Positions 5,405 to 37,793 are shown, counted from the first letter of the stretch. The stretch: 40,772 nucleotides of DNA from Candidatus Levyibacteriota bacterium (GCA_963722305.1 CAVRKE010000001.1:567549-608320); one strand, 5' to 3'. The notes: generated by a model from the sequence alone, not told the origin. A program made the numbers and translations.

Positions 5405-6547
5405 TTAGGTCTTTTTTGAGTTTTCCAAGACTTGTTTATACACATTTTCATACCCTCCAACCATTTTTTCAACAGTGAAATTTTCTTCAACATGTCTTCG
5501 GCAATTTTTTCGAATTTGCAAATATTCTGCCGGCGGCATGGCATAAATTTTTTCAACCGCTTCGCATAATCCCTCTATACCGGTTTTTTTAATAATCCAC
5601 TCCCCTCTTTTGTCTTCATCACTTGAATTCACTATGAATCCCGTTATTCCATCCCTAATAATTTCCGGCACCGCTCCTCGGGCAAAAGCGATTACCGGCG
5701 TCCCACAAGCCATCGCTTCAATCAGAACCAACCCAAACGGCTCCTCCCATTGAATCGGGAAGAGAAAAGCTTTCGCATTCTGGCAGTAATTAATTACCTC
5801 ATCCATACTCAGATGGCCGTGATATTTAATGAGTGAGTTGTCAATCTGGGGTTTAATTCTTTCTTTCCAAAACTCGCTAGCTTCATCGGCGCTTCCAAGT
5901 AGATCAATTCCCAGATTAAGCTTTTGAGCAACGGCAATGCTTTCCTCAATCCCTTTCTCAGGTACAATTCTTCCGATAAATAAGATGTCATTGTTCTTTG
6001 GATTTTCGCTTAAGCTAATAGTTGAAGTATCTATACCATGGTAAATTGTCTGAACATATTGCAAGTCGGGAAGAGGCTTTCTCTGCGCATCGCTAATAGA
6101 AACAAAATATTGTGAATGCTTAAAATGGGAGAGTATATCTGTTCTAATTTGATTCAATGGACTATGCAATGTCGATACCATAGGAGTAGATACTAATGGT
6201 GCATAATATGCACTTCTTGTATCAAAAATCGAATGGATAATATCAAAACGATTTTCTTTTGCCATTGCAAAACATTTAGAAATTAACAAATGTTCGTATT
6301 CGATATGTTTGCCTTTCTCAATATTGGGGTTCAGTCCGGTGGCGTGCTCGGTCACCGCAACAAGGGAAGCGGTGGTTTGTGAATCGCCCGAGGCAAACAA
6401 GGTAACCTCATGCCCTCTTCTGACCATTTCTTCGGTTATAACAGACATTATCTTTTCCGGAGCGCCTGAATCACCCTGTGGAACATCCTCGGGAAGAGGC
6501 GGAAGCTTAATATAGTTAGATGCAAGAATTGCGATGCGTAATTTCAT
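5405..6547 (-). CDS. Glycosyltransferase family 4 (GT-B fold)
   Basis: Typical GT4 C-terminal core (EEPFGLVLIEAMACGTPVIA, GITGFIV). It is a tandem paralog of the next gene; the C-terminal ~60 aa are nearly colinear. Confidence 0.8.
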   Translation of the reverse strand: MKLRIAILASNYIKLPPLPEDVPQGDSGAPEKIMSVITEEMVRRGHEVTLFASGDSQTTASLVAVTEHATGLNPNIEKGKHIEYEHLLISKCFAMAKENRFDIIHSIFDTRSAYYAPLVSTPMVSTLHSPLNQIRTDILSHFKHSQYFVSISDAQRKPLPDLQYVQTIYHGIDTSTISLSENPKNNDILFIGRIVPEKGIEESIAVAQKLNLGIDLLGSADEASEFWKERIKPQIDNSLIKYHGHLSMDEVINYCQNAKAFLFPIQWEEPFGLVLIEAMACGTPVIAFARGAVPEIIRDGITGFIVNSSDEDKRGEWIIKKTGIEGLCEAVEKIYAMPPAEYLQIRKNCRRHVEENFTVEKMVGGYENVYKQVLENSKKT

Positions 6548-11050: not shown

Positions 11051-11158
11051 ATTAATTTCTAATTCTTAATTACTAATTTCTAATCAAATCTCAATGCCTA
11101 AGTTTTAAAATTAAACATTGAATCATTCATTGAAAATTGAGAATTAATAATTGAAAAT
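11051..11158. repeat. AT-rich intergenic element, copy a (heptad arrays flanking a conserved core)
   Basis: The left arm reads AATTTCT AATTCTT AATTACT AATTTCT. The core is TTTTAAAATTAAACATTGAAT (11103-11123). The right arm TTGAAAA TTGAGAA TTAATAA TTGAAAA is the inverted orientation of the same heptad type. It is homologous to 16039-16132 and 30315-30399. Confidence 0.7.
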
Positions 11159-11300
11159 TTTAGTCTGACTATATCAAAAGATATACTAAAGATATCAATT
11201 TTGCTAATAGCTTCGACTTTTTTGATTATAGAACTTATTTAGTCTATCTTGCAAGAGCTATTGTTAGCTTGTATAATGCGGGTATATTCAATATACCCGG

Positions 11301-12531: not shown

Positions 12532-12891
12532 TTACTTGGAGCCTTTAACAGGACCTTGCGTAAGTTCACTAACTATTTTGCGAATCGCTCTAACGGGCCA
12601 CAATAAAACAGGTTTGGTTAAATTATTAAATGCTTCCTTTGCGCCATCAAACATAAACCTCGGAATATCTCTAAATCCAACTGCTCCCCCATTCTTATAT
12701 GTTAAAGGCTCTAATCCTAATCTGTTTCTAAGTTCGGCTGCTCGTTGGTCATCGCTACGACTAACCCCCGGAATAATCCCTGACAATTCGTCTCTCATCT
12801 TAGCAATCGCCTCTTCTGGTAAGGCTGCTGGGCCTGCTGGACTTTGGCTTCCCTGTTGTTCTGATGCTTGAGCGCCACCGGCTTGCGCCAA
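12532..12891 (-). CDS. Hypothetical protein (TTG start)
   Basis: 119-aa ORF with a low-complexity N-terminus. A similar-length ORF exists on the opposite strand (12536-12871). I chose the minus strand only because its sequence looks more protein-like. Confidence 0.35.
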   Translation of the reverse strand: MAQAGGAQASEQQGSQSPAGPAALPEEAIAKMRDELSGIIPGVSRSDDQRAAELRNRLGLEPLTYKNGGAVGFRDIPRFMFDGAKEAFNNLTKPVLLWPVRAIRKIVSELTQGPVKGSK

Positions 12892-13246: not shown

Positions 13247-13891
13247 TTACTTTAAATTAGCTTTACTTTCAACCAGACTTGAAAAAACTGCATTTATCGC
13301 CTTCAATTGTTTTAATAGATCTCCTCCTTTAGACACCCTAACCCGACACATTCCAAATTCAAGTTTTCCTTTTTTCTTTCCTGTTAGAACACTAATCCGC
13401 TGAAATTGTTCTTTTGGCAGATTAACCACCTTAGACCAAAAATCTAAACATTTGTCCTTATTCATATCTTCATAAATTCTAATACTTACCTTTAATCTTT
13501 CGTCTCTAATATTAAAAATCTCTCTTAATCCGCTGACAAACACCTTTATTAGATTTGAATCCGTGTTGGTTAGCATAAAGTCTTTTTTATTGCCTTCTGC
13601 CCAATAAAGCGCTGAGATAAAAAGGATTTTTTCTTTTGTCGAAATATCTTTTAAGAGTATTTCAGCTTCCCTAAGGGCTTTCTCCTCTTTTAAATTCTTT
13701 ATTCTTTTGCTTCCTCCTCTTTTAACACGCCAACTATCCATAAACTCCGGTAAGATTGTAACTTTCCTAGCGTAATAAAACACCGTTGTTTTAGCTATTT
13801 TAAGTTTTGAGCAAATTTCCGGAATTGTGTAACCCCTTTCTCTTAAATAGGAAATCTCTTTTATCTTTGCCTTACTTAATCTTTGACCCAT
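13247..13891 (-). CDS. HTH DNA-binding protein with a LAGLIDADG-like C-terminal domain (putative homing-endonuclease-like)
   Basis: The N-terminus is a resolvase-type HTH (ISYLRERGYTIPEICSKLKIAKTTVFYY). A later segment, ALYWAEGNKKDFMLTNTDSNLIKVFVSGL, resembles the LAGLIDADG_3 layout. The domain call is from memory and is not verified. Confidence 0.5.
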   Translation of the reverse strand: MGQRLSKAKIKEISYLRERGYTIPEICSKLKIAKTTVFYYARKVTILPEFMDSWRVKRGGSKRIKNLKEEKALREAEILLKDISTKEKILFISALYWAEGNKKDFMLTNTDSNLIKVFVSGLREIFNIRDERLKVSIRIYEDMNKDKCLDFWSKVVNLPKEQFQRISVLTGKKKGKLEFGMCRVRVSKGGDLLKQLKAINAVFSSLVESKANLK

Positions 13892-16038: not shown

Positions 16039-16132
16039 TCTAATTTCCAATCAAATCCCAAATCCCAAGTACCAATTTTAAAATTTAAACATTCGAATTT
16101 GTCTAGAAATTAGGAATTAAAAATTAGAAATT
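16039..16132. repeat. AT-rich intergenic element, copy b
   Basis: TAATTTCCAATCAAATCCCAA (16041-16061) matches 11074-11094 at 19 of 21 positions. The core is TTTTAAAATTTAAACATTCGAAT (16076-16098). The right arm GAATTTGTCTAGAAATTAGGAATTAAAAATTAGAAATTC closely matches 30358-30399. Confidence 0.7.
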
Positions 16133-17627: not shown

Positions 17628-18902
17628 TCAAAATTTGAGAAGTTTCTCGAACTTTTGTCTATTGTCAAAATTGCCAATCACTGCTAAATTGAGACCGTTT
17701 TCTTTGAAATATTTTTGGGCGACGTTTTGCACATCTTCAACCGTGATTTTATCAACCTTGGCAATAATTTCCTCCGGAGTTTCGATTTTCTTCTCCAAAA
17801 TCTCCGCTTGGGCAAAATAGCCGGCGACCGAACGGCTGTCTTCCAACTCCAGCACGAAATGTCCTTTTAAATATTCCTTGGCCTTGTTAAGTTCGGCAGT
17901 AGTGATGCCGGACTTTGCACCGGCAATTTTGGCATATTCGCTAACGATAACCGCAATCCCCTCTTCTGCCCTTTTTGGGTCCAAACCGGCGGTGGAAACT
18001 AAGTTCCCCACGTCTTGATAGTGTTCCGAGCTGGTTCTGACGTAATAAGCCAGTCCCCGCTTCTCCCTAACCTCCGAAAATAAACGCGAACTCATGCCGC
18101 CGCCCAAAATCGCCGAAAGTACCGAAAGAGCGTGTTTTTCCTCGTTGTTGATTGGAACCGTCCTGAATCCAATGGCAATATGCACTTGTTCTGTTTTTTT
18201 CTGTTGTATAAAAAGAGCCGGTTTGAGCTGGTTTTCTGGTTGTTTCTCATAATTTAACGTATCGAAACGCTTCATTTGGCCGAAATAATTTTCGACTTTC
18301 TGTTCTATTTCGGCTGAGTCTATACCACCGGCGACAACGACGGTTAAATTGCTGGCGCTGTAAAGGCTTTGCAAGTAATCGACAAAATTTTGTCGGTTGA
18401 CGCTCTCGATGACCTCTTTGCTGCCGATAATTTCCCAACCAAGCGGTGTATCACCGTACAACAGAATTTCGTAAATGTCACCGATATGCCTACTCGGTGT
18501 ATCTTCATAAAGGTTTTTTTCTTCCAAAATGACGCCTTTTTCTTTGTCGATTTCGGATGAATCAAGTTTTGAGTTTTGCAGCATATCGGAAAGGACATCC
18601 AGGCACAAATCCACGTTGTTAGCAGCGGCTTTGACGTAAAATCCGGTCACTTCTTTGCTGGTAAAGGCATTGCACTCTCCACCAACGCCGTCGATTAAAG
18701 AAGCGATTTCCATGGCCGTCGGGCGCTTGTTGGTCCCCTTAAACGCCATGTGTTCCAAAAAATGGGAAATACCGTTATTCTTACGGGTTTCATATCTTGA
18801 GCCGGCACCAACCATCACCATGGCTGTGGCGCTTTCAAACGACGGCATCGGAACAGTAATTACTCTTAAACCGTTAGCGAGAACTTTTCTTTGATAATTC
18901 AT
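17628..18902 (-). CDS. M16-family zinc metallopeptidase (pitrilysin-like)
   Basis: It has the inverted zinc motif HFLEHMAFKGT (HxxEH) and a two-domain length of 424 aa. Confidence 0.88.
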   Translation of the reverse strand: MNYQRKVLANGLRVITVPMPSFESATAMVMVGAGSRYETRKNNGISHFLEHMAFKGTNKRPTAMEIASLIDGVGGECNAFTSKEVTGFYVKAAANNVDLCLDVLSDMLQNSKLDSSEIDKEKGVILEEKNLYEDTPSRHIGDIYEILLYGDTPLGWEIIGSKEVIESVNRQNFVDYLQSLYSASNLTVVVAGGIDSAEIEQKVENYFGQMKRFDTLNYEKQPENQLKPALFIQQKKTEQVHIAIGFRTVPINNEEKHALSVLSAILGGGMSSRLFSEVREKRGLAYYVRTSSEHYQDVGNLVSTAGLDPKRAEEGIAVIVSEYAKIAGAKSGITTAELNKAKEYLKGHFVLELEDSRSVAGYFAQAEILEKKIETPEEIIAKVDKITVEDVQNVAQKYFKENGLNLAVIGNFDNRQKFEKLLKF

Positions 18903-18943: not shown

Positions 18944-20647
18944 TCACATGTGCTCAGGCGCACTAACTCCTAAGAGACTGAGGGTGTTTTTGAGCGTGAT
19001 TTGGGTGGCTTTAAGAAGCGCAAGTCTTGATTGAGTCAATTTTTCGTCTTTATTGATAACCTGACGCACTTCGTAGAATTTATGGAACAAAGTCGCAATT
19101 TCTAAGGCGTAGGTGGTGAGTGGATTGACTTCCAAAGTCTTCACCGCTTCTTCGACCAAATACGGCAATTTAAGCAAATGCCTGATTAATTCGATTTCTT
19201 CTTGAGCGGTAAGTAGCGACAAATCAGCCTTATTCTTAATTCTTAATTCTTCATTCTTAATTCTCGCGAATATGGAGCATATTCGCGAGTGCGCATACTG
19301 GACATAAAATACCGGGTTATCCGCCGCTCTCTTTTTCGCCAGTTCCAGATCAAAATCCATGTGCGTTTGACTGCGTGGCGTGAGTAAGAAAAACCTGAAG
19401 GCGTCCTTGCCGACTTCGTCCAAGACTTCCCGCGCGGTGACAAAATCTCCGGCGCGTTTACTCATTTTTACTACTTCTTCTCCTCTTTTTAAGCGTACCC
19501 ACTGATACAAAACAACTCGCAACATATCAGGATTATAGCCCAACGCTTTGACCACCGCTTTCATTCGCGGCACGTGCCCGGAGTGATTTGCGCCCCAAAT
19601 ATTTATAACCAAACCATCTTGACCAACCCGCTCAAATTTTTCGTCGTGGAGGGCAATATCGGTTGAGAAATAGGTAAATTCTCCGTCTGATTTTCTGACA
19701 ACTGTTTCGCGGTCTTTTAAGAATTCGTCGGCAGGAGCAAACCACTCTGCCCCATCCTTGCTTTTGATAAATTTTTGAATTTTTGAAAGCACTCCAGGAA
19801 CTTTTTTCCGAAAATCCGATTCTTTGCTGATAATGTCGTATTTGATACCCATTGTCTCGCAGTCTTTGAGGATTTCCGCAAGCATGATTTCGACCGCCAC
19901 CTTGCCCGCTTCTTCCATAAATTTTTCAGGCGATAAGTCCTGGTCTTTGTCCTGCAGCGTTTCTTCGACATCCTGAGCTAGTTCTCTAATATATTCACCA
20001 AGATATTGCATTTCGTAGCCTTCCTGCTTCTGGTCCGGGTGCAAAGTAAAGTAAATTGCCTCACCCAAGCGCTCCACCTGACCACCGACATCGTTATGCC
20101 AATATTCGCGGATTACTTCATAACCGGCTTTTTTGAAGATGTTGGCTAAGCTGTCGCCAAGCGGGCCACCGCGGGCATTGCCGATGTGCAATGGGCCGGT
20201 CGGGTTAGCGGAAACAAACTCGACACTGACTTTTTTGCCTTTTCCGATTGCCAGCGAGCCATAATCGTCGCCTTGCTCGATAATGTTTTGAACTTGACTC
20301 TGCAGATATTTTTTAGAAAAGTAGAAATTGATAAAGCCCGGTTTTGCTGGTTCAATTTTTTCAAAAATATCCAAGTTTTCACGTCTAAGTACCTCAACAG
20401 CGTACCCTGCAAACTCAAAAGGATTTTTACCCCAAATTCTATCTTTATCTTTTACTACATTGAATTCCCCTACATGCGCGTCTGTTGTTGCTGCCACTAA
20501 ACGGTAATAGACCATTGCGAAGTTTGACGAAAAATCCCCATTAATTGAATCCTTCGGTTTTTCAATCTTGAAATCAAGGACTGAAACTTCAAGATCATCA
20601 GCGATTTTCTGTAAGGCTTTTTGAATTTTTTCTTTCGCTTCTTCCAT
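18944..20647 (-). CDS. argS: Arginine--tRNA ligase
   Basis: Contains SANPTGPLHIGNARGG (the HIGH region), MSKRAG (KMSKS-like) and the DALR-type C-terminal YAHSRICSI. Confidence 0.93.
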   Translation of the reverse strand: MEEAKEKIQKALQKIADDLEVSVLDFKIEKPKDSINGDFSSNFAMVYYRLVAATTDAHVGEFNVVKDKDRIWGKNPFEFAGYAVEVLRRENLDIFEKIEPAKPGFINFYFSKKYLQSQVQNIIEQGDDYGSLAIGKGKKVSVEFVSANPTGPLHIGNARGGPLGDSLANIFKKAGYEVIREYWHNDVGGQVERLGEAIYFTLHPDQKQEGYEMQYLGEYIRELAQDVEETLQDKDQDLSPEKFMEEAGKVAVEIMLAEILKDCETMGIKYDIISKESDFRKKVPGVLSKIQKFIKSKDGAEWFAPADEFLKDRETVVRKSDGEFTYFSTDIALHDEKFERVGQDGLVINIWGANHSGHVPRMKAVVKALGYNPDMLRVVLYQWVRLKRGEEVVKMSKRAGDFVTAREVLDEVGKDAFRFFLLTPRSQTHMDFDLELAKKRAADNPVFYVQYAHSRICSIFARIKNEELRIKNKADLSLLTAQEEIELIRHLLKLPYLVEEAVKTLEVNPLTTYALEIATLFHKFYEVRQVINKDEKLTQSRLALLKATQITLKNTLSLLGVSAPEHM

Positions 20648-25471: not shown

Positions 25472-26687
25472 CTTGCTTTTTGAAAAGAGCTGCCAACAGC
25501 GAAATTAACAGTAAATAATAGCCGGCCGACAGTTGCCAAGGGACATTTTGGAAAATAAACGAACCTTTAAGATTGGCAAAAAAGTTGGTCATAAGCTCAA
25601 AATAGATTAAAAACGGCAGGCAAAGATATAAGAAAAGTTTGGCCAAAGGCGTGAAAACAAATGCGGCCATCGCGGCAAAGCCACCGAGAATCATCAGAAT
25701 CGGCACCGTCCACAGCACCAGGGCGTTAACCACTATTGACCAGAGTGAATAGTTGCCGAAAGTGGAAACTAGAATCGGCAGGCTGGCGGCTTGGGCCGAA
25801 AGCGTGGTGATTAAATCCGCCGACCAGCCGTTTTCGAAGCGCTTGAGAAGTCTTGGAATAATCAGAATTCCTAAAGTTGAGGCAAAAGACAGCTGAAAAC
25901 CAACGTCAGTCAAGAAATTTGGCTGCCAAAACAACATTATAAATCCGGTTAAGAAGAGAATGTAAATTGCATCTTTTTGCCTACCCAGTATTTGGGCGGA
26001 AAAAGCCAAAATTCCCATAATCGAAGCTCTGATAATCGATGACTGAAAGCCGGCCAAAAAATCGTAGAAAATCAATCCGAAAATGCTAAAGAAAATCGCC
26101 ATCTGCCGTTTAAATAACAGCCCAAACAGGTAAAAAAGAAACCCTGCTACCATGGTGACGTTCATTCCCGACGCGGCAATGACGTGCATTACGCCAACTG
26201 TTTTGAAATTTGCCAAAAACTGTTTTGAGAAGTCCTGCTTAATGCCAAAAACAATGCCTAAGAGAAGGGCTGACGAATCTTTAGGCAGGCTGTTCTGAAA
26301 AGAACCGATTATTTTTTGGCGGATTGCATAAATAACTGCTAACCCACCACCGCTTGGATTTTCAAGATTAATTTTTGGGAAACTGATTGAAATGATTGAC
26401 GATTTATTATTTAGCAGTTTAAATTTTAAAGTGCCAGTAATCGCCAACTTGTCGCCGTAAGCGTACTCCGGATAGCCGGCTGTTTGGACAAAGGCTAACT
26501 CCCCGTTTGGTAAATTCAGCGAAAAATTCTGGTAGTTACCGGAAAACTTCGGATCGGAAGAAACAGTTGTTTCAAAGCTAATACTTTGCCCGTCTTTGTA
26601 TTCGCTTTTCTGAGAATAGAACAAACACAGCCTTAACAAAAGAACAATAATCAATAAAACAGTAAACAAGGATAATCGTTTGGTCAT
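25464..26687 (-). CDS. comEC: ComEC/Rec2 competence channel protein (OB-fold N-domain plus polytopic competence domain, no MBL domain)
   Basis: The core is polytopic (VMHVIAASGMNV, SFASTLGI). The N-terminal soluble segment is like DUF4131. ATG 26687 lies 3 codons inside the track TTG start at 26696. Confidence 0.8.
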   Translation of the reverse strand: MTKRLSLFTVLLIIVLLLRLCLFYSQKSEYKDGQSISFETTVSSDPKFSGNYQNFSLNLPNGELAFVQTAGYPEYAYGDKLAITGTLKFKLLNNKSSIISISFPKINLENPSGGGLAVIYAIRQKIIGSFQNSLPKDSSALLLGIVFGIKQDFSKQFLANFKTVGVMHVIAASGMNVTMVAGFLFYLFGLLFKRQMAIFFSIFGLIFYDFLAGFQSSIIRASIMGILAFSAQILGRQKDAIYILFLTGFIMLFWQPNFLTDVGFQLSFASTLGILIIPRLLKRFENGWSADLITTLSAQAASLPILVSTFGNYSLWSIVVNALVLWTVPILMILGGFAAMAAFVFTPLAKLFLYLCLPFLIYFELMTNFFANLKGSFIFQNVPWQLSAGYYLLLISLLAALFKKQDD

Positions 26688-26739
26688 AAAAACCAACTGG
26701 CCACTAGTGTTTAGTTAACTAGTTGCTAATGTCTAGTAG

Positions 26740-27369
26740 CTAATAAACTGAAATTTTATCTTTAATTTCGGAAAAGACTTTGCTGGAAACCACCTTTTTG
26801 TCCAGTAACTGATTGATGTCTGAGTATGGCCGGCCGTTGACTATTTTGGTAATCGTAGCCGGACCAACTCCCGGCAAGGAATCCAAATCTTGGGAACTTG
26901 CCGTGTTAATGTTAATTAATGCTGAAGCTTCGTCATTGTTGTTTAGGATTTGCGTATTTGAATTTGTAGTTTCGTCTACTCTGGGGATATACACTTTTGC
27001 TCCGTCGGACAGTTTCGCCGCCAGGTTTATATTTTTGGCTACCCAGTCCCGGTCGGCGTCTGAGGATAGCCCTTGGGCGGAAACTAAAGCGTCTTGAATA
27101 ATAGAATTAGCAGTCAGTTTATAAACACCCGGCACCACCACCGCACCTTCAACATCCACCAGAATTAAATTCGAATTGTCCGCTTTTGACTCGGAAACCG
27201 AAGTTGAATCCGCCTTTTGGAAAGTAATATCCTGGCTTTTTGAAGCTGAACCGAAGAACGCTATCAAACCATATATAAAGAACATCAACCCGAGGCAAAA
27301 CAAGGCTAGTGGCAGCCAATATTTTCGAAAAAACGGCGAGAATTGGGCAATTAAACTCTCTAAGTCCAT
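26740..27369 (-). CDS. comEA: ComEA-family DNA-binding competence protein
   Basis: It has an N-terminal TM helix, an SLBB-like middle region and a C-terminal helix-hairpin-helix (NINTASSQDLDSLPGVGPATITKIVNGRPY). Confidence 0.85.
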   Translation of the reverse strand: MDLESLIAQFSPFFRKYWLPLALFCLGLMFFIYGLIAFFGSASKSQDITFQKADSTSVSESKADNSNLILVDVEGAVVVPGVYKLTANSIIQDALVSAQGLSSDADRDWVAKNINLAAKLSDGAKVYIPRVDETTNSNTQILNNNDEASALININTASSQDLDSLPGVGPATITKIVNGRPYSDINQLLDKKVVSSKVFSEIKDKISVY

Positions 27370-27378
27370 AGGGCAATA

Positions 27379-30357
27379 TTAGACGACGAAATTTATTAAC
27401 TTTCCCTCTATATAAATCACTTTCTTAATTTCTTTTTCCGCCAGATATTTTGCAACTTTTTCACTACTTTTCACCTGCTCTTCTACCTTATTCTGAATTT
27501 TTAATTCTGAACTTTGAATTGTTACCGTGTCTCTTAACTTCCCGTTAATCTGAACAACGATTTGGATTTCGTCTTCAACTAAATATTTTGGGTCATATTT
27601 TGGCCATTCTTCCAAATGAACTGACTTAAAAGGGGTGGCACGGGAGGAAGGGCTCACCACAGCACGTATCTCTGAGCTTTGCGAATGAGGAGTACTGGCA
27701 AGCGGACTGAAGGGAGCTCGCTTGCTTGACAAGGGTGAAGGAAAACCCGGGACAGGACCCCGCATTGAAACATTGTTAGCATTCGGATTAAGTAACTGCC
27801 AGAGTTCCTCGGTGATAAACGGGGCAAATGGCGCCAGTAGTTTTAGGAAGGTTGCGTACTCTTCCCTGGCGATTTTCTCTTTGGCAGAGAGATAGTTAAG
27901 CCAAGTCATGAGGCTTGCCACCGCGGTATTGAACTGAAAAGTGTTGAGGTCATCCCCCACTTTTTTGATGGTTTTATGCATTTGCAGTAAATCTTCCTGA
28001 CTTAACTTACTTGGGATTTGGGATTTGGGATTTGGGATTTTATCTTGCAGCTCCCAAACTCTTTTTAGGAACCGGTAAATGCCGGAAATCGCACCGCTTG
28101 ACCAGGGAGCGGTGGCTTCATACGGCATCATAAAGCACAGATACAGCCTGACCGTGTCCGCGCCGAATTCCTTGACCACGTCATCGGGGTTAACCACGTT
28201 ACCTTTAGACTTACTCATGCGGTTGCCGTCGGGACCCAAAATTACACCGTGCTGCACCCTTTTTTTGGCAAATTCACTAAACTCAACCAAACCGATGTCC
28301 TTAAAGAACTTGGTAAAAAACCTGGCGTATAAAGTGTGGCCGAGTGTATGTTCGGAACCGCCGAAATAGACGTCAATCGGCATCAGTGTTTTGACTTTTT
28401 GGCTGTCAAACGGCCCATCCGAGTAGTCGGGTGACACATAGCGGTAGTAATACCAGGCGCTGTCAAAGAAAGTATCCAGGGTTTCGGCGTCTCTTTTGGC
28501 TTTGCCACCACATTTGGGACAGGTAGTGTTAAGCCACTCTTCATCTGTTGCCAACGGTGGCTTGCCTTTGGGCGTGTAATCAACGTTATAGGGAAGTTCC
28601 ACCGGCAAGTCTTCGTAGGGAACTTGAATCATGGCGTATTCCTCATCATCGATTATTAAGATCTTGTGAGGGGTGGTAGAAGAGGAAGGGCTCCCGACAG
28701 CGCGCATCTCTGAGCTTTGCGAATGAGGAGCACTGGCAAGCGGACCGAAGGGAGCTCGCTTGCTTGACAAGGGTGAAGGGAAACTTCTGACAGGACCCCG
28801 AGCGCAGTGCTTGCAGTAAATGATGGGAATTGGTGTTCCCCAGTAGCGCTGACGGGAAACCGACCAGTCGCGCAGATGGTAATTAACCATCTTCTTGCCC
28901 ACCGGCTTGGCTTTGAAGGTAGTTTCGACAATCGGTAGCTTGAATTTTTCGGCAAATTCCCTGTCCCGTTCGTCGGCAAAAGGTACCGCCATGATGGCAC
29001 CGGTGCCATAGCCCGCCAAAACATAATCCGCCACCCATACCGGAATTTCCTTACCGGTGACCGGGTTTTTCACAAACTTTCCCGTGAAAACTCCGGATTT
29101 GCTTCTGTCCTCTTTTCTCTCCATTTCGGTTTTCTTTTGAGCCGCCTTGATGTAGTCTTGAACTTCTTTTGTTTTGATGTTTTGCGCAAACGGATGCTCG
29201 GGGGCAACCACCATAAACGTTGCTCCGTCGGTGGTATCCGGCCGGGTAGTAAAAACCTCAATAAAGTCGGGGGTGGCGAGCGCGGGGGACCCCCGGCGAG
29301 TGCCCGCAGGGAGTTTATCGACCGAGGACATCGGACGGGGGTAAAATGAGACAGGACCCCCGACAATTGGAAATTGAAGCAGCATTCCCTCCGACCTGCC
29401 AATCCAGTTATTCTGACCTTCTTTAACCATTTTCGGCCAGTCCGCATCGCTTTGCGAAGCATTGCTGGCGGGCCAGTCAACGTCTGAAGGGGTGACGCCT
29501 GAGGAAGGGCTCCCGGCAGCGCGCATCTCTGAGCTTTGCGAATGAGAAGCACTGGCGGGAAGGAAACCGGCGGCAGGACCCCGTGAGTCTTCAGGCCAAA
29601 TAAGCTCGTCTGCATATTGTGTGATTTTAAGGAACCACTGCTCAACTTCTTTCTGGACAACTTCCGCACCGCAGCGCCAACATTTTCCGCCTTCGATGTG
29701 CTCGTTAGCCAAAACAGTTTGGTCAACCGGACACCAGTTGGACAAAGCCTTTCCGCGATAAGCAATCCCCTTTTCGAACATTTTGAGAAAAATCCACTGG
29801 TTCCAACGGTAATATTCCGGTAAACAAGTGATCACTTCGTGCGACCAGTCAATCATTGTTCCCATTGTGCCAAACTGCTTCTGCATGGTGGCGATATTTT
29901 TCATCGTCCAATCTTGTGGGTGGACTCCTCTTTTAATCGCGGCGTTTTCCGCCGGCAGACCAAAGGCATCAAAACCGTTCGGGAAGAAAACGTTAAAACC
30001 GTTCATTCTTTTATACCGGGCGTGGGTATCCGGTGGCGTGAAGGCAAACCAGTGCCCCAAATGCAGGTCGCCGGAAGGATACGGCAATTCAACCAGGTTG
30101 TAATACTTGGGAGATTTTGCAGCCTCGTCGAATTTGTAAAGCCCGTTCTCTTGCCAAACTTTCCGCCAATACGGTTCTATCTCCTGGGGAAAATATCTCT
30201 CCCGCTTGCCCCGTGAGAGCGCCCCTTGCGAGCGCGAGGCTGGAAGCCTTCGGCGCAAGGCAAGCTTCTTATGGGGCCATTTCGCCTCAATTTCACTCGG
30301 AAAATACCGTGGGCCAATTTTTAATTTAGAATTTTTAATTTTTAATGATTTAGGCAT
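27379..30357 (-). CDS. leuS: Leucine--tRNA ligase carrying multiple in-frame insertions
   Basis: Contains LPYPSGDLHLGH (HIGH), FTTRPDT (CP1 editing domain), KMSKSKGN and WIGRSEG. It is 992 aa against a usual ~800-860 aa; the excess is explained by the inserts listed separately. Confidence 0.93.
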   Translation of the reverse strand: MPKSLKIKNSKLKIGPRYFPSEIEAKWPHKKLALRRRLPASRSQGALSRGKRERYFPQEIEPYWRKVWQENGLYKFDEAAKSPKYYNLVELPYPSGDLHLGHWFAFTPPDTHARYKRMNGFNVFFPNGFDAFGLPAENAAIKRGVHPQDWTMKNIATMQKQFGTMGTMIDWSHEVITCLPEYYRWNQWIFLKMFEKGIAYRGKALSNWCPVDQTVLANEHIEGGKCWRCGAEVVQKEVEQWFLKITQYADELIWPEDSRGPAAGFLPASASHSQSSEMRAAGSPSSGVTPSDVDWPASNASQSDADWPKMVKEGQNNWIGRSEGMLLQFPIVGGPVSFYPRPMSSVDKLPAGTRRGSPALATPDFIEVFTTRPDTTDGATFMVVAPEHPFAQNIKTKEVQDYIKAAQKKTEMERKEDRSKSGVFTGKFVKNPVTGKEIPVWVADYVLAGYGTGAIMAVPFADERDREFAEKFKLPIVETTFKAKPVGKKMVNYHLRDWSVSRQRYWGTPIPIIYCKHCARGPVRSFPSPLSSKRAPFGPLASAPHSQSSEMRAVGSPSSSTTPHKILIIDDEEYAMIQVPYEDLPVELPYNVDYTPKGKPPLATDEEWLNTTCPKCGGKAKRDAETLDTFFDSAWYYYRYVSPDYSDGPFDSQKVKTLMPIDVYFGGSEHTLGHTLYARFFTKFFKDIGLVEFSEFAKKRVQHGVILGPDGNRMSKSKGNVVNPDDVVKEFGADTVRLYLCFMMPYEATAPWSSGAISGIYRFLKRVWELQDKIPNPKSQIPSKLSQEDLLQMHKTIKKVGDDLNTFQFNTAVASLMTWLNYLSAKEKIAREEYATFLKLLAPFAPFITEELWQLLNPNANNVSMRGPVPGFPSPLSSKRAPFSPLASTPHSQSSEIRAVVSPSSRATPFKSVHLEEWPKYDPKYLVEDEIQIVVQINGKLRDTVTIQSSELKIQNKVEEQVKSSEKVAKYLAEKEIKKVIYIEGKLINFVV
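27631..27762. repeat. GC-rich in-frame repeat element in leuS, copy A (132 nt)
   Basis: Manual alignment to copy B shows roughly nine of ten positions identical. It encodes RGPVPGFPSPLSSKRAPFSPLASTPHSQSSEIRAVVSPSSRATP. Confidence 0.85.
28013..28040. repeat. (GGGATTT)x4 heptanucleotide array inside leuS
   Basis: Read directly from the sequence. On the coding strand it is (AAATCCC)4 and encodes KIPNPKSQIP. It shares the exact 19-mer AAATCCCAAATCCCAAGTA with intergenic element b (16053-16071). Confidence 0.9.
28669..28800. repeat. GC-rich in-frame repeat element in leuS, copy B (132 nt)
   Basis: It encodes RGPVRSFPSPLSSKRAPFGPLASAPHSQSSEMRAVGSPSSSTTP and aligns with copies A and C. Confidence 0.85.
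29266..29364. repeat. GC-rich in-frame insert in leuS, copy D (99 nt, related termini, 9-bp TIR)
   Basis: It has perfect terminal inverted repeats GTCGGGGGT (29266-29274) and ACCCCCGAC (29356-29364). The coding-strand ends (GGGGTCCTGTC...GCCACCCC) match A-C, but the interior differs. It encodes VGGPVSFYPRPMSSVDKLPAGTRRGSPALATPD. Confidence 0.7.
29488..29583. repeat. GC-rich in-frame repeat element in leuS, copy C (96 nt, internally deleted)
   Basis: It is the same element as A and B but lacks the central ~36 nt. It encodes RGPAAGFLPASASHSQSSEMRAAGSPSSGVTP. Confidence 0.8.
30199..30276. repeat. GC-rich palindromic in-frame insert near the leuS N-terminus, element E (78 nt)
   Basis: It encodes PHKKLALRRRLPASRSQGALSRGKRE. 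Nested complementary segments are GCTTGCC/GGCAAGC, TTGCG/CGCAA and AGGCT-gga-AGCCT. It is flanked by two diverged copies of the RYFPxEIExxW coding segment. Confidence 0.7.
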
Positions 30358-30399
30358 TTGAATTTGTTTAGAAATTAGAAATTAAGAATTAGAAATTTC
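30315..30399. repeat. AT-rich element, copy c, spanning the leuS start codon
   Basis: GCATTTGAATTTGTTTAGAAATTAGAAATTAAGAATTAGAAATTTC aligns with 16088-16132. The left part (AATTTTT AATTTAG AATTTTT AATTTTT AATGATT) lies inside the leuS N-terminal codons (MPKSLKIKNSKLKI). Confidence 0.65.
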
Positions 30400-30488: not shown

Positions 30489-31133
30489 ATGAAGTCTTTA
30501 CTGCAAGTCTCTCTTCTTGTTTTATCTTTTGTTTTAGTTTTCTTCTGGCGTTTTCTGCAGTTGAGTGACCTGACAGTCCCGGTGATTGGCGTTTTGGTTG
30601 CAGCATATTTGGTTTTGTCGTTAAGAAAACGGGGTAAAGGTTTTCTGACCATGGGCGGCGAAGGCCCGTGGGGCATTTTTATTTTGAATACTCTGATATT
30701 CCTGCTAATTTTTTCCACCGGCGGTTTTAATTCCCTACTTTACTTCCTGCTGTACTTTTTGGCCTTCGGCATCGCCTTTGTCTTTGCCCCTAGTATGGTT
30801 TTTGTCTTTGTTCTGGGCACGATTGTAATTTTTCTGCCCGATGCCCTGAAAACTGATCTTCTAAACAGCGGTTTAAAGCTTGGCTCACTACTGCTTTTAT
30901 CTCCCTTAGCTTACTTTTTTGGCGCGCAGTACCGCAAAACCGACCAGGAAGAGGAAAAAGTCGAAGCTTTGGAAGAAAGAACCAAGGAAGCCGCCGACAC
31001 TATTGCCGAGGATATTGAGGAAGTTGTCAAAGACGAGAAAGCCAACTTGAAAGGCCCAGATTTGGAAAAACTCAACGAGATTTTGGAAGAAACCGAAGAC
31101 CTCCGCGCCGAGAGCGCCAATAAAGATTTATGA
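30489..31133 (+). CDS. Polytopic membrane protein with acidic coiled-coil-like C-terminal tail
   Basis: 214-aa ORF with about 5 hydrophobic helices followed by an E/K/D-rich tail. There is no recognisable motif. Its stop codon lies inside the heptad array that also carries the next gene's start. Confidence 0.6.
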   Translation: MKSLLQVSLLVLSFVLVFFWRFLQLSDLTVPVIGVLVAAYLVLSLRKRGKGFLTMGGEGPWGIFILNTLIFLLIFSTGGFNSLLYFLLYFLAFGIAFVFAPSMVFVFVLGTIVIFLPDALKTDLLNSGLKLGSLLLLSPLAYFFGAQYRKTDQEEEKVEALEERTKEAADTIAEDIEEVVKDEKANLKGPDLEKLNEILEETEDLRAESANKDL

Positions 31134-31159
31134 TTTATGATTTATGATTTAAGATTTAA
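31125..31159. repeat. (GATTTAT)x3(GATTTAA)x2 heptanucleotide array across a stop/start junction
   Basis: Read directly from the sequence. It contains TGA at 31131, 31138 and 31145 and ATG at 31130, 31137 and 31144, so a stop and a start occur in every frame. Confidence 0.9.
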
Positions 31160-31913
31160 GAAAAAAGAGTTACTCACCCTCACAAAAACGAGAATTACCT
31201 ATTTCTTACTTCTTCTTTCTTACTTCTTCTTTGTTACTTCCGCGCCAACGGCGCTTGCCCAAACCATGAGTAATTCGCAGTACATTATCCAAATGGGTAA
31301 TTTGAACTCAATTGCCGGACACCCAACCGGCCCCAGCTACCAACTGTTGTATACCGTCGGCCAGACCAGCCCGGGGCTCTATTCCGGCCCCAATTATAAA
31401 GTTAAAGCCGGCTTTGAATACGTCCTTTCTAACATTCCTTTCCGATTTACGATTAGCAATATCTTTATTGATTTTGGCATTATCAGCCCAACCATTCCGG
31501 TATTAAGAACCAATACCCTAACTATTTCCAATGGCTCTGCTTATGGTTACCAGGTGACTGTTTCCGAAAACCGGAATTTGACCTCCGACGCTTACGGAAC
31601 ACAAATTCCGGCCACTACTTGTGACAGCGGAGATTGCACTCCGACAACCGCCGCGCTGTGGACCAGTTCCCTCACTTACGGCTTTGGTTACAGATGCGAC
31701 AACATATCGGCAACTGATTGTGACAGTCAATTTTCAACCGCTAATTATTACAAACCGTTTATTGCTTCACCGTCGGCCATAGTAATTATGAGCAGTCTGC
31801 AGGTTGGCCGAAATAAAGTCGGACAGGTCACTTACAAGGTTAACGTCTCGGGACTGCAACGCGCCGGCCTATATACCAATTTAATTAATTACATAGCAAC
31901 ACCGACTTTTTAA
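31137..31913 (+). CDS. Secreted beta-rich protein ending in YIATPTF (WxL-like C-terminus), module 1
   Basis: It has a signal peptide (ITYFLLLLSYFFFVTSAPTALAQ) and repeated SxYxL-type N-terminal motifs. The C-terminal AGLYTNLINYIATPTF parallels AGTYSTVFTYVATPTF of 34267-35712. The resemblance to Firmicute WxL domains is inference. Confidence 0.7.
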   Translation: MIYDLRFKKKELLTLTKTRITYFLLLLSYFFFVTSAPTALAQTMSNSQYIIQMGNLNSIAGHPTGPSYQLLYTVGQTSPGLYSGPNYKVKAGFEYVLSNIPFRFTISNIFIDFGIISPTIPVLRTNTLTISNGSAYGYQVTVSENRNLTSDAYGTQIPATTCDSGDCTPTTAALWTSSLTYGFGYRCDNISATDCDSQFSTANYYKPFIASPSAIVIMSSLQVGRNKVGQVTYKVNVSGLQRAGLYTNLINYIATPTF

Positions 31914-36744: not shown

Positions 36745-36866
36745 CTTCCATTTCTCGCAACGATATCGTTTTTCCTAAAGTCAAATCTCTGTGACTATTG
36801 ACTTGGTCTTGGTTGAGTGGGGACTTTCCGTCTTTGCATTCTATCTTTACTTTAATGAACGCTACG

Positions 36867-36950
36867 GAGAATTGAGAATTGAGAATTGAGAATTGAGAAT
36901 TGAGAATTGAGAATTGAGAATTGAGAATTGAGAATTGAGAATTGAGAATT
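36867..36950. repeat. Perfect (GAGAATT)x12 heptanucleotide microsatellite
   Basis: Counted directly: 84 nt. It lies between convergent genes and ends 3 nt from the stop codon of 36954-37793. Confidence 0.97.
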
Positions 36951-36953
36951 CTT

Positions 36954-37793
36954 TTAGTATCCCATCCACCATTTGTGATGCAAGGGGCGTTTTTTCTCGA
37001 ACGGATGGAAACCAATCAGCTTTATTAACAGTATAATAATGAGGATAATCAGCGGTATTAAAAGCCAAAGCGGCCCGAGCGCCAAATTGGTTAGGAATTT
37101 GAGTAATTTGTCCCAGAGGTTTTTAAGAAAAGCCAGAAACTGATCCCACCAGGAAAGTGACTTCAGCTTAAGCTTCTTTGTTGGCTCCAGCGATTGCTTA
37201 TGATTAAGCTCTGCTCTGGTATATAAGCTGTAATTGCCTGCTTTCAAATCTTTAATCGTAAACTCATAGTAACCAGTGGGGTCTGCCGTGGTTGTAAGCA
37301 CAGTTCCGTTACTTAAGTAAAGGCTAACCAGTGCCCCAGGCATGGAATAACCAAACGCTTTGGCGCTTGAGCCCTCGTTGATTTCGGTTCGTGAAAGGCC
37401 CAGCGTTGGCGGAAGAAAGATATCCTTCATGGTTACCGAAGCCTGGGCCGGCGGAATGTTAAAACAGGTATAGGACTCCCCCAGTCTTTCAAAATCAATG
37501 GCATCCAGACAAAAACTGGAAAAGCCTCTTTTAATTAAGACGTCTGTAATATAAAAGTCTCCATTTCCGTCGGCAACCGTCGCCCGGGCAAAAATTCCAT
37601 CAATGGTTAAAACAATTGAGGCATTAGGAGCAATGTATCCGGAAAGATTAAGGTAAAACTCCCCAACCGAGGCCTCAACCTGAGTAGGCAGAGCAGCCGT
37701 TGGCAAACGGGTAATTTGCGAAAAAACAGGACCAGATAAACTAAAAACCAGTATGAGTGTTGATAATAAAAATATGGGCAGTATCTTCTTCAT
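36954..37793 (-). CDS. Secreted protein with two Ig-like/carboxypeptidase-regulatory-like domains and a C-terminal TM anchor
   Basis: It has a signal peptide (ILPIFLLSTLILVFSLSGPVFSQ). The motifs ADGNGDFYITDV and TADPTGYYEFTIKDLKAGNYSLY are typical of such beta-sandwich domains. A hydrophobic helix lies near the C-terminus. Confidence 0.7.
   Translation of the reverse strand: MKKILPIFLLSTLILVFSLSGPVFSQITRLPTAALPTQVEASVGEFYLNLSGYIAPNASIVLTIDGIFARATVADGNGDFYITDVLIKRGFSSFCLDAIDFERLGESYTCFNIPPAQASVTMKDIFLPPTLGLSRTEINEGSSAKAFGYSMPGALVSLYLSNGTVLTTTADPTGYYEFTIKDLKAGNYSLYTRAELNHKQSLEPTKKLKLKSLSWWDQFLAFLKNLWDKLLKFLTNLALGPLWLLIPLIILIIILLIKLIGFHPFEKKRPLHHKWWMGY

Follow-up and report, generated by a model that had tools for sequence, protein, structure and literature searches.

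A stretch of 40,772 nucleotides (40.8 kb, hereafter the window) from a Candidatus Levyibacteriota bacterium (GCA_963722305.1, CAVRKE010000001.1:567549-608320) harbors the leuS gene at 27379..30357 on the minus strand, and the product of this gene, a leucyl-tRNA synthetase (LeuS or LeuRS) of 992 aa, carries six inserts belonging to four families of repeat elements, all of them listed here on the same minus strand. Three of the inserts are copies of one element, designated family 1. Copies A (27631..27762) and B (28669..28800) represent its long form of 132 nt and are 89% identical over the whole length, as was determined with a repeat finder; copy C (29488..29583) represents the short form of 96 nt, the 3' 69 nt of which match A and B at 87-88%; its 5' end matches them as well, and the internal block of ~36 nt is absent. 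This extra block, which is the mark of the long form, is a nested sub-hairpin located at 27700..27738 in copy A and at 28738..28776 in copy B (boundaries approximate). The same apical module, alpha, is found in all three copies, and each has its own variable box (V-box): CCGGGT/(C)CCCG in A, AGAAG/CTTCT in B and GCCGG/CAGGC in C. The 21-nt core TCATTCGCAAAGCTCAGAGAT is exact in A, B and C and absent from the rest of the window, 0 occurrences being expected in shuffled sequence.

The D-type element of 99 nt (29266..29364) has in common with A-C only the termini GGGGTCCTGTC…GCCACCCC; it has the 9-bp inverted ends GTCGGGGGT/ACCCCCGAC and a different interior. The E-type mini-palindrome (~29435..29478), which adds 12 codons, has a core of 28 nt, cgccagcaatgcttcgcaaagcgatgcg, on both sides of which lies the 8-bp direct repeat GACTGGCC, and the N-type hairpin element (~30203..30277; …HKKLALRRRLPASRSQGALSRGK…) is located near the N-terminus of the protein, between RYFPSEIEAKW and RYFPQEIEPYW. 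The lengths of A, B, C and D are multiples of three, none of the four contains a stop codon in the leuS frame, and the GC content of the elements reaches 60-70% versus 42.7% in the window. The first-pass annotation, made from the sequence alone, had already delimited A-D, and its coordinates, its reading of C as a shortened copy, the ends that it found common to D and A-C, and the frame and GC contrast that it noted all proved correct; its list was nevertheless incomplete, E and N having been missed. The N-terminal motif of LeuS is doubled around the N-type hairpin (RYFPSEIEAKW … RYFPQEIEPYW; window 30190-30300), the two DNA segments, as read by eye, being only ~58% identical; the same doubled RYFP.EIE..W arrangement occurs in the orthologues P0006 and P0063 and looks like an old duplication tied to the insertion.

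The closest orthologue of the window's LeuS is 68% identical to it, and its best matches are proteins of Levybacteria/Patescibacteria. Within the clade the length of LeuS spans 749 to 1109 aa, most of the proteins having 749-770 aa and many 800-1109 aa, and comparison of the orthologues put the baseline at ~750 aa rather than at the 800-860 aa which the first-pass annotation had taken as the norm for bacteria. The baseline is this low because the leucine-specific insertion domain, known from LeuRS of Thermus thermophilus and Escherichia coli, is missing in the Levybacteria enzymes (residues ~708-714 versus residues 579-638 of the T. thermophilus structure 1H3N). When the query was aligned with 120 orthologues in MAFFT, the surplus length consisted of low-complexity peptides clustered at a few positions, namely the N-terminus and core columns ~208-212, 239, 271, 398 and 675-680, and these positions include precisely those of C/E, D, B and A. 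From one orthologue to another each site is occupied in a patchy manner, and several separate peptide families reappear at these hot spots, some of them having DNA blocks in common and differing by frame-shifting indels. LeuRS apparently offers about five permissive insertion sites and, therefore, several unrelated element families accumulate at the same junctions.

The placement of the inserts between contiguous LeuS segments, as had been proposed in the first-pass annotation, is borne out by a phmmer comparison with the PDB, in which the window's protein aligned with the T. thermophilus (Tt) LeuRS 1H3N in seven blocks broken exactly at the inserts. Site C/E falls between Tt residues 204 and 210; site D between Tt residues 241 and 243, directly before the TTRPDT editing motif; site B after the first CxxC, at about residues 442-447; and site A between Tt residues 797 and 803, ahead of the C-terminal domain. 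In terms of the LeuRS domains, we take site B to be at the second zinc knuckle, site C between the ZN1 region and the strand that leads to the editing domain, and site A in the linker to the C-terminal domain. In an AlphaFold2 model built with 61 sequences, residues 1-51, 258-305, 335-360, 524-563 and 863-908 were modeled as coil with the predicted local distance difference test (pLDDT) below 50, each of these stretches being bordered by confidently folded segments. Every leuS insert is, hence, predicted to form a disordered loop in LeuRS, in line with the surface loops suggested at the outset.

Other sequences have been accepted by leuS as well. At site 239 the proteins P0053, P0069, P0079 and P0098 contain a folded alpha/beta-hydrolase domain of ~170 aa (PF00561/PF06821) where hairpin elements are located in other genomes; thus, this junction takes whole domains, too. 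A (CCCAAAT)x3 heptamer run, found in frame at 28018-28043, encodes PNPKSQIPS and has a near-complement at 16050-16075; orthologues have K/N/S-rich heptamer-like peptides at this spot, e.g., KSSKLKVQS in locus L004. Thus, in-frame entry into leuS is not confined to the GC-rich elements but extends to AT-rich heptamer repeats.

An nhmmer census performed on both strands over the DNA of element-bearing hosts and LeuS orthologues revealed 21 family-1 copies in 9 loci. The genic ones reside in leuS of six genomes, in gnd (twice), in obg (three times) and in comEC (once); four others are intergenic (L005 2028-2156; L009 9443-9532 and 12866-12954; L011 21358-21458). Protein-level searches extended the host range. 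A concatenated six-frame peptide query returned 5 proteins, the first hosts beyond leuS among them: the 6-phosphogluconate dehydrogenase (6PGDH) P0123 contained the long form of family 1 and another 6PGDH, P0125, the short form at the corresponding codon, and the D-type element was found in the arginyl-tRNA synthetase (ArgRS) P0124, encoded by argS of L004, and in P0122 of L007, a DprA/glycosyltransferase read-through. A profile search of 1.84 billion representative proteins yielded 32 matches, of which ~28 were genuine and contained the element's frame-0 peptide; Pfam-annotated hosts among them were Obg, a distant second LeuRS with three copies, DHH, MerR, ABC ATPase, ComEC, Mur ligase and RNase HII. 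A word-indexed profile search with the family-1 peptide alignment returned 3 small open reading frames (ORFs) only. The N-type element was also detected inside comEC of L010 and L011, in another reading frame, and a relative of the E-type element (PARIAMQSIAGG) in leuS of L011 at site A, the E site of L009 being empty; an opposite orientation considered for this L011 copy was dropped, as the near-perfect palindrome aligns equally well either way. Locus L004, which is syntenic with the window, has an insert-free leuS (761 aa) and a D-type element in argS, and the window shows the reverse arrangement; according to the syntenic-locus comparison and nhmmer, the other genes of the window contain no elements. 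In fact, several families of such elements exist, not one.

The argS gene has a hot spot of its own at about residue 60 of ArgRS, where three element families use one site (L004 10184-10282, D-type; L008 ~18117-18250; L011 18436-18535). Besides the D-type, the peptides found there are 'LRSHSELDE…' and 'SKISRSLSESRLS…', and the window's ArgRS (18944-20647) is empty at this position. A second, larger element family was observed at L008 12256-12412, L010 6789-6945 and L011 18436-18535, with the peptides SRFSDDAR…RSLSESLSS and QPHAARDAR…PSLSESRLQ and the common DNA blocks GACGCTCGCCAGG and CCGCTCGCTAAGCGAAAGCC, along with indels by which the frame is shifted; it is the commonest insert at LeuS site 239, being present there in ~20 orthologues. 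The repeat families cluster and nest in one another. One family-1 copy (L012 12574-12689) contains, nested in its tip, a mini-repeat encoding '(V)YPERSRR', which also directly follows family-1 copies in P0142 and P0144, and the motif GCGCTGAGGTCGC adjoins family-1 copies on their 5' side in two contexts (L009 ~12844-12866 and L010 ~5767-5791) and also within the argS insert of L008, so that it may be part of a further element co-localizing with family 1. The protein P0122 (L007 4-927) is a single ORF in which the N-terminal 100 aa of DprA are followed by a D-type element and this, in turn, by the C-terminal half of a GT4 glycosyltransferase; this fusion could reflect either a repeat-mediated rearrangement or a metagenome mis-join at the repeat. 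P0157, a cluster-mate of the element-bearing MerR-type protein P0136, is labeled 'Nanoarchaeota archaeon' by NCBI, which points to a mis-binned contig of the Candidate Phyla Radiation (CPR) or to a wider host range.

Without exception, the genic copies (17 of family 1 and 3 of the D-type) are of a length divisible by three, are inserted in the sense orientation, have the same phase (GGT CCT GTC, i.e., GPV) and contain no stop codon. Two of the four intergenic family-1 copies (92 and 101 nt) are not divisible by three and are frame-shifted with their arms intact, and, therefore, the frame constraint comes from translation: frame preservation is imposed by selection on the translated copies and is not intrinsic to the element. 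In copies B and C the coding orientation is open in all three frames, and stops are present in the antisense strand. Co-orientation with transcription was likewise observed for the four intergenic copies.

The elements are 90-150 nt long. The sense strand of family 1 starts with (N)GGGGTCCTG[T/C]C, followed by a 6-nt variable box and TT-CCCTCCCGCCAGTGCTC. Next come the apical module, which measures 16 to ~60 nt, GCGCGCTGTCGGGAGCCCTTCC, the box again as its reverse complement and finally [G/A][C/T]CACCCC(T); the terminal inverted repeats are GGGGT…ACCCC. The nested sub-hairpin of ~36 nt typical of the long form is present in window copies A and B and in both L005 copies, L013 having another sub-insert in this position; the sub-hairpin and some of the tips contain C(UUCG)G-type tetraloop motifs. 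In an arms-only alignment of the 21 copies, in which the tip and the sub-insert were replaced by a GAAA linker, 90.7% of the cells were paired versus 37-52% with the partners slid, and the covariation score was 0.292 against 0.124±0.013 for shuffled alignments, a value reached by 0 of 500 shuffles. Both sides were changed at 5 of the 8 pairs of the box helix, with up to four pair types per position. The same complementarity was traceable in proteins alone: when the residues that follow GP[VA] and those that precede [AVT]T[P…] were examined for encodability by reverse-complementary codons in 27 further copies, 5.59 of 6 positions were complementary versus 4.84±0.13 after shuffling (0/5000 as high). 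The column pair 33-46 is U·G in 21/21 copies and the pair 11-70 mostly U·G, and the fold z-scores of A-C range from -1.3 to -2.6 for the sense and from -0.45 to -1.4 for the antisense strand. Considering these conserved G·U pairs and z-scores, only the sense strand, as RNA or single-stranded DNA (ssDNA), is the folding strand.

Conservation of the elements is well above that of the silent sites of their hosts. Between the genomes compared, the LeuS core is 72-83% identical at the protein level, with a third-codon identity of 0.46-0.52, while the identity of window copy B to the short-form copy that L008 has at this codon is 0.95 (0.97 at third positions), so the elements diverge in a manner quite different from that of the rest of LeuS. 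The constant arms have a mean identity of 0.90 across all copies, and the host flanks beside the elements show background divergence, third-position identity included. Hitch-hiking of the elements on a recent recombination tract was rejected for this very reason, the third-position identity of the flanks being at background, as was the copying of the variable box from the flanking target, since box and flank do not match. Orthologous sites often have the V-box in common: at site B the window and L008 both have AGAAG, at site C GCCGG is found in the window as well as in L009, and at site 239 both L010 and L011 have CCGGG. Window copy C and its positional orthologue in L009 have the same V-box and different apical modules. 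The apical module tends to be uniform within a genome (one tip in the three window copies, another in both L010 copies and a third in both L005 copies), the exceptions being L009 and L011, each with two different tips, and both long and short forms combine with different tips. At site 239, the D-type element of the window occupies exactly the junction of the family-1 copies in L010 and L011. The simplest reading of these sequence comparisons would be that of old insertions, the interiors of which have been repeatedly overwritten from other copies via the common termini and arms; alternatively, elements may have been inserted anew at these junctions. Whichever of the two took place, the arms are under a sequence-specific constraint independent of translation.

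Among the known systems, the Rickettsia palindromic elements (RPE) are the closest in features. RPE-1 to RPE-10 are described as multi-copy palindromic repeats of ~100-150 bp, which are inserted in frame in unrelated housekeeping genes and occur in non-coding DNA as well, have a peptide conserved in one frame and, in that account, are judged compatible with the fold of the host protein because of their surface position and have no known transposase (Ogata et al., 2000, as given in PMC10969869). The same holds for the Levybacteria elements, which are hairpins of 90-150 nt, with 20/20 genic copies in phase 0, and the hosts of which (LeuRS, ArgRS, 6PGDH, Obg, ComEC, RNase HII) are unrelated. The differences are the CPR/Levybacteria host instead of an alphaproteobacterial endosymbiont, the modular structure, in which each copy has its own co-varying 6-bp box and both nested sub-hairpins and exchangeable tips occur, a strict sense bias to which even the four intergenic copies conform, a conservation far above that of host synonymous sites, the sharing of hot spots and even termini by different families, and the presence of up to six copies per gene. 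The likeness is one of features, the two are not known to be related in sequence, and the Levybacteria elements can at most be regarded as an RPE analogue, not a member, although as a counterpart they appear unusually well conserved. Miniature inverted-repeat transposable elements, or MITEs, which are sometimes intragenic and give in-frame fusions (PMC10969869), are likewise short, non-coding and hairpin-forming, with terminal inverted repeats (Correia/NEMIS, ERIC, BOX, Nezha, QMITE); here, by contrast, family 1 and D have no target-site duplication, no parent insertion sequence (IS) was found in the window or in the called genes of 11 related loci, the elements are strictly sense, and the whole element is one closed rod rather than terminal inverted repeats around a loose core. 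Repetitive extragenic palindromes (REP) are extragenic sequences of 20-40 bp with a GTAG/CGTC head (PMC3733652). With REP, the bacterial interspersed mosaic elements (BIMEs) and the associated RAYT transposases, as well as with IS200/IS605-derived elements, the Levybacteria elements have in common a presumably structure-based recognition, the lack of target-site duplication and strand specificity, and such strand-specific behavior would fit a single-strand hairpin mechanism. Unlike REP, they are 90-150 nt long, mostly intragenic and start with (N)GGGGTCCTG, with no RAYT gene seen in the window; unlike IS200/IS605, they have no conserved 5' tetranucleotide at the insertions, and no Y1/HUH or TnpA gene was seen in the sequence examined.

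Similarities are also found outside bacterial transposition. The GC clusters and double-hairpin elements of fungal mitochondria (the optional in-frame clusters of yeast var1 and the byps of Magnusiomyces) are mobile GC-rich hairpins of AT-rich genomes that enter coding regions, too, and spread in a gene-conversion-like manner with nested insertions; they are organellar and much shorter than the Levybacteria elements. Byps break the frame and are bypassed, whereas the genic elements described here always preserve it. The small dispersed repeats which Elhai and colleagues reportedly described in cyanobacteria in 2008 are said to be tiny hairpins nested in one another and in protein-coding genes; unlike the elements found here, their units are said to measure 21-27 bp and to lack both large conserved arms and a conserved peptide frame.

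Taken together, these data make it probable that the leuS inserts are non-autonomous palindromic repeats which propagate at the nucleic-acid level in Levybacteria/Microgenomates and land both between and inside genes. The RPE-like selfish or tolerated in-frame element suggested in the first-pass annotation is thereby supported, copies being present in unrelated genes (gnd, obg, comEC and, for the D-type, argS, among others) and at four intergenic sites. A copy inserted in a gene would survive only if it is in the sense orientation (the antisense strand being full of stops), has a length that is a multiple of three, is read in the GPV frame, which encodes a disordered peptide rich in Pro/Ser/Ala/Gly, and sits at a permissive loop or domain junction; such elements would be transcribed and translated through and not removed. 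The sense strand is predicted to fold into a rod-like nested hairpin, the conserved termini and arms of which are presumably recognized by a putative trans-acting factor, while the 6-bp box would need only to pair and the tip would be free to vary. Interior modules may pass from copy to copy in the same genome, with gene conversion or replacement through the common arms as the probable route, and this exchange would keep old orthologous insertions young-looking.

Several observations weigh against this interpretation. Neither any of the 21 family-1 copies nor any of the 3 D copies has a target-site duplication, only the E-type element having a flanking 8-bp repeat; no target motif was recognized, the 5' flanks of the copies lacking a common one; and no transposase was found in the window or among the called genes of 11 loci (~200 kb of related loci), the only trace of a transposase/HUH gene in the window being a sub-threshold HTH_7 match at 13247-13891. 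All six inserts of the window are within leuS and none is intergenic, which random insertion followed by filtering would not predict, and the conservation of arm nucleotides among genomes with LeuS proteins just 74-82% identical exceeds what is usual for a decaying selfish element and could mean a host-level function. Protein-based discovery of copies favors sense, in-frame ones, only the 4 intergenic copies testing the orientation without that bias, and the mobility that we infer does not derive from presence/absence polymorphism within a population. Finally, a scan of genome and metagenome contig collections for the exact core 20-mer CATTCGCAAAGCTCAGAGAT gave 2 and 1 matches, respectively, all by chance and with dissimilar flanks; only chance matches were obtained because the tip is genome-specific and makes a poor probe.

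Much of the same evidence would also be explained if the inserts were functional modules of sense-strand RNA (or ssDNA) selected by the host for protein binding, mRNA stability or processing, or translation pausing, their spread being secondary. Arms conserved at ~90%, including third-codon positions, among genomes whose synonymous sites are near saturation, next to unconserved flanks, together with the strong covariation, the invariant G·U pairs, the sense-only fold, the tetraloops of the C(UUCG)G type, the co-orientation of all 25 copies (4 intergenic included) with transcription and the position of the inserts at domain junctions, speak for such a function. Nevertheless, we consider it unlikely: the close syntenic relative L004 is evidently viable with an insert-free leuS, site occupancy is patchy, unrelated families replace one another at the same sites, the tips are hypervariable, Rfam gave no match even at E<=1, and turnover together with gene conversion from active copies can also yield conservation. 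A related proposal, to which we would allow a limited though not negligible chance, is that of a structured, sense-strand-specific CPR module of a hitherto undescribed class, the invariant arms of which would be read by a dedicated candidate protein, with a 'barcode' helix in each copy and exchange of tips and sub-hairpins; it could represent either a new single-strand mobility, mediated by ssDNA or RNA and aimed at permissive junctions of housekeeping genes, or host-co-opted structural signals in mRNA at the domain boundaries of aminoacyl-tRNA synthetases.

The remaining explanations fare worse. Lineage-specific LeuRS insertion domains or low-complexity linkers, evolved at the protein level and repeated by internal duplications in leuS, would account for inserts lying in frame, in loops and, partly, at the same position in several orthologues; we rejected them, and this reading is already contradicted, as unrelated genes and intergenic regions contain this very DNA, two of the intergenic copies being frame-shifted with intact arms, the N-type uses a different frame in comEC, synonymous drift is absent (0.95 overall and 0.97 at third positions against 0.46-0.52 in the host), covariation concerns nucleic-acid pairing and not residues, and the inserts are predicted to be disordered. 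Hardly more credible is the removal of the inserts before or during decoding, as with mini-introns, intervening sequences processed by RNase, inteins or bypass of the kind known from T4 gene 60 or mitochondrial byps. The latter are GC-rich hairpins in an AT-rich gene as well, and the terminal GGGGU/ACCCC helix closes each element and would bring the flanking codons together. The frame constraint is, however, a strong argument against splicing or bypass: all 20 genic copies keep frame, phase and ORF through tips of 16 to ~60 nt, which elements that are removed or bypassed would not need to do, while 2 of the 4 intergenic copies are off the multiple of three; moreover, no intron or ribozyme family was matched in Rfam at gathering thresholds or at E<=1, no take-off/landing codon pair is evident at the junctions, and the encoded peptides are disordered low-complexity sequences of 30-50 aa. 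Misassembly, chimerism or collapse of repeats into leuS, a concern raised by the metagenome-type source and by the related contig L007 with its DprA::D::glycosyltransferase chimera, which could be a mis-join at a repeat, is scarcely conceivable. An independent ENA contig, L014, which is 99.07% identical to window positions 25602-30096, contains A, B, C, D and E at the same places, and its 23 gap openings indicate a different assembly route, therefore the inserts are real sequence; besides, orthologous copies are located at the same codons in several independent metagenomes, and the reading frame is intact throughout.

If the inserts are mobile palindromic repeats, as we prefer to think, the in-frame colonization of essential genes by such repeats, so far a curiosity of Rickettsia, would have an independent and richer version in the CPR and would appear as a recurrent phenomenon of small, AT-rich, reduced genomes. 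The elements would explain much of the length heterogeneity of CPR housekeeping proteins, which bears on annotation, on the alignment of phylogenetic markers and on structure prediction. Invariant arms, a helix in which only pairing matters, a free tip and a fold confined to the sense strand offer a testable handle on the recognition or mobility machinery in uncultured organisms, and the hot spots show where LeuRS and ArgRS tolerate insertions.

Two other kinds of repeats were observed in the window. A 300-nt direct repeat with 100% identity, located at 100-399 and 1160-1459, lies in tandem paralogous genes at 16-1095 and 1061-2128 (WxLIP_PGBD) and could result from recent gene conversion, duplication or an assembly issue. 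AT-rich heptamer arrays, e.g., (GAGAATT)n, together with AAATT-type motifs, occupy intergenic positions at 36853-36964, 11054-11173, 16074-16132, 30341-30397 and 31116-31171; some of these arrays form long-range inverted pairs at 83-84% and look like a separate repeat family or a motif associated with promoters or terminators.

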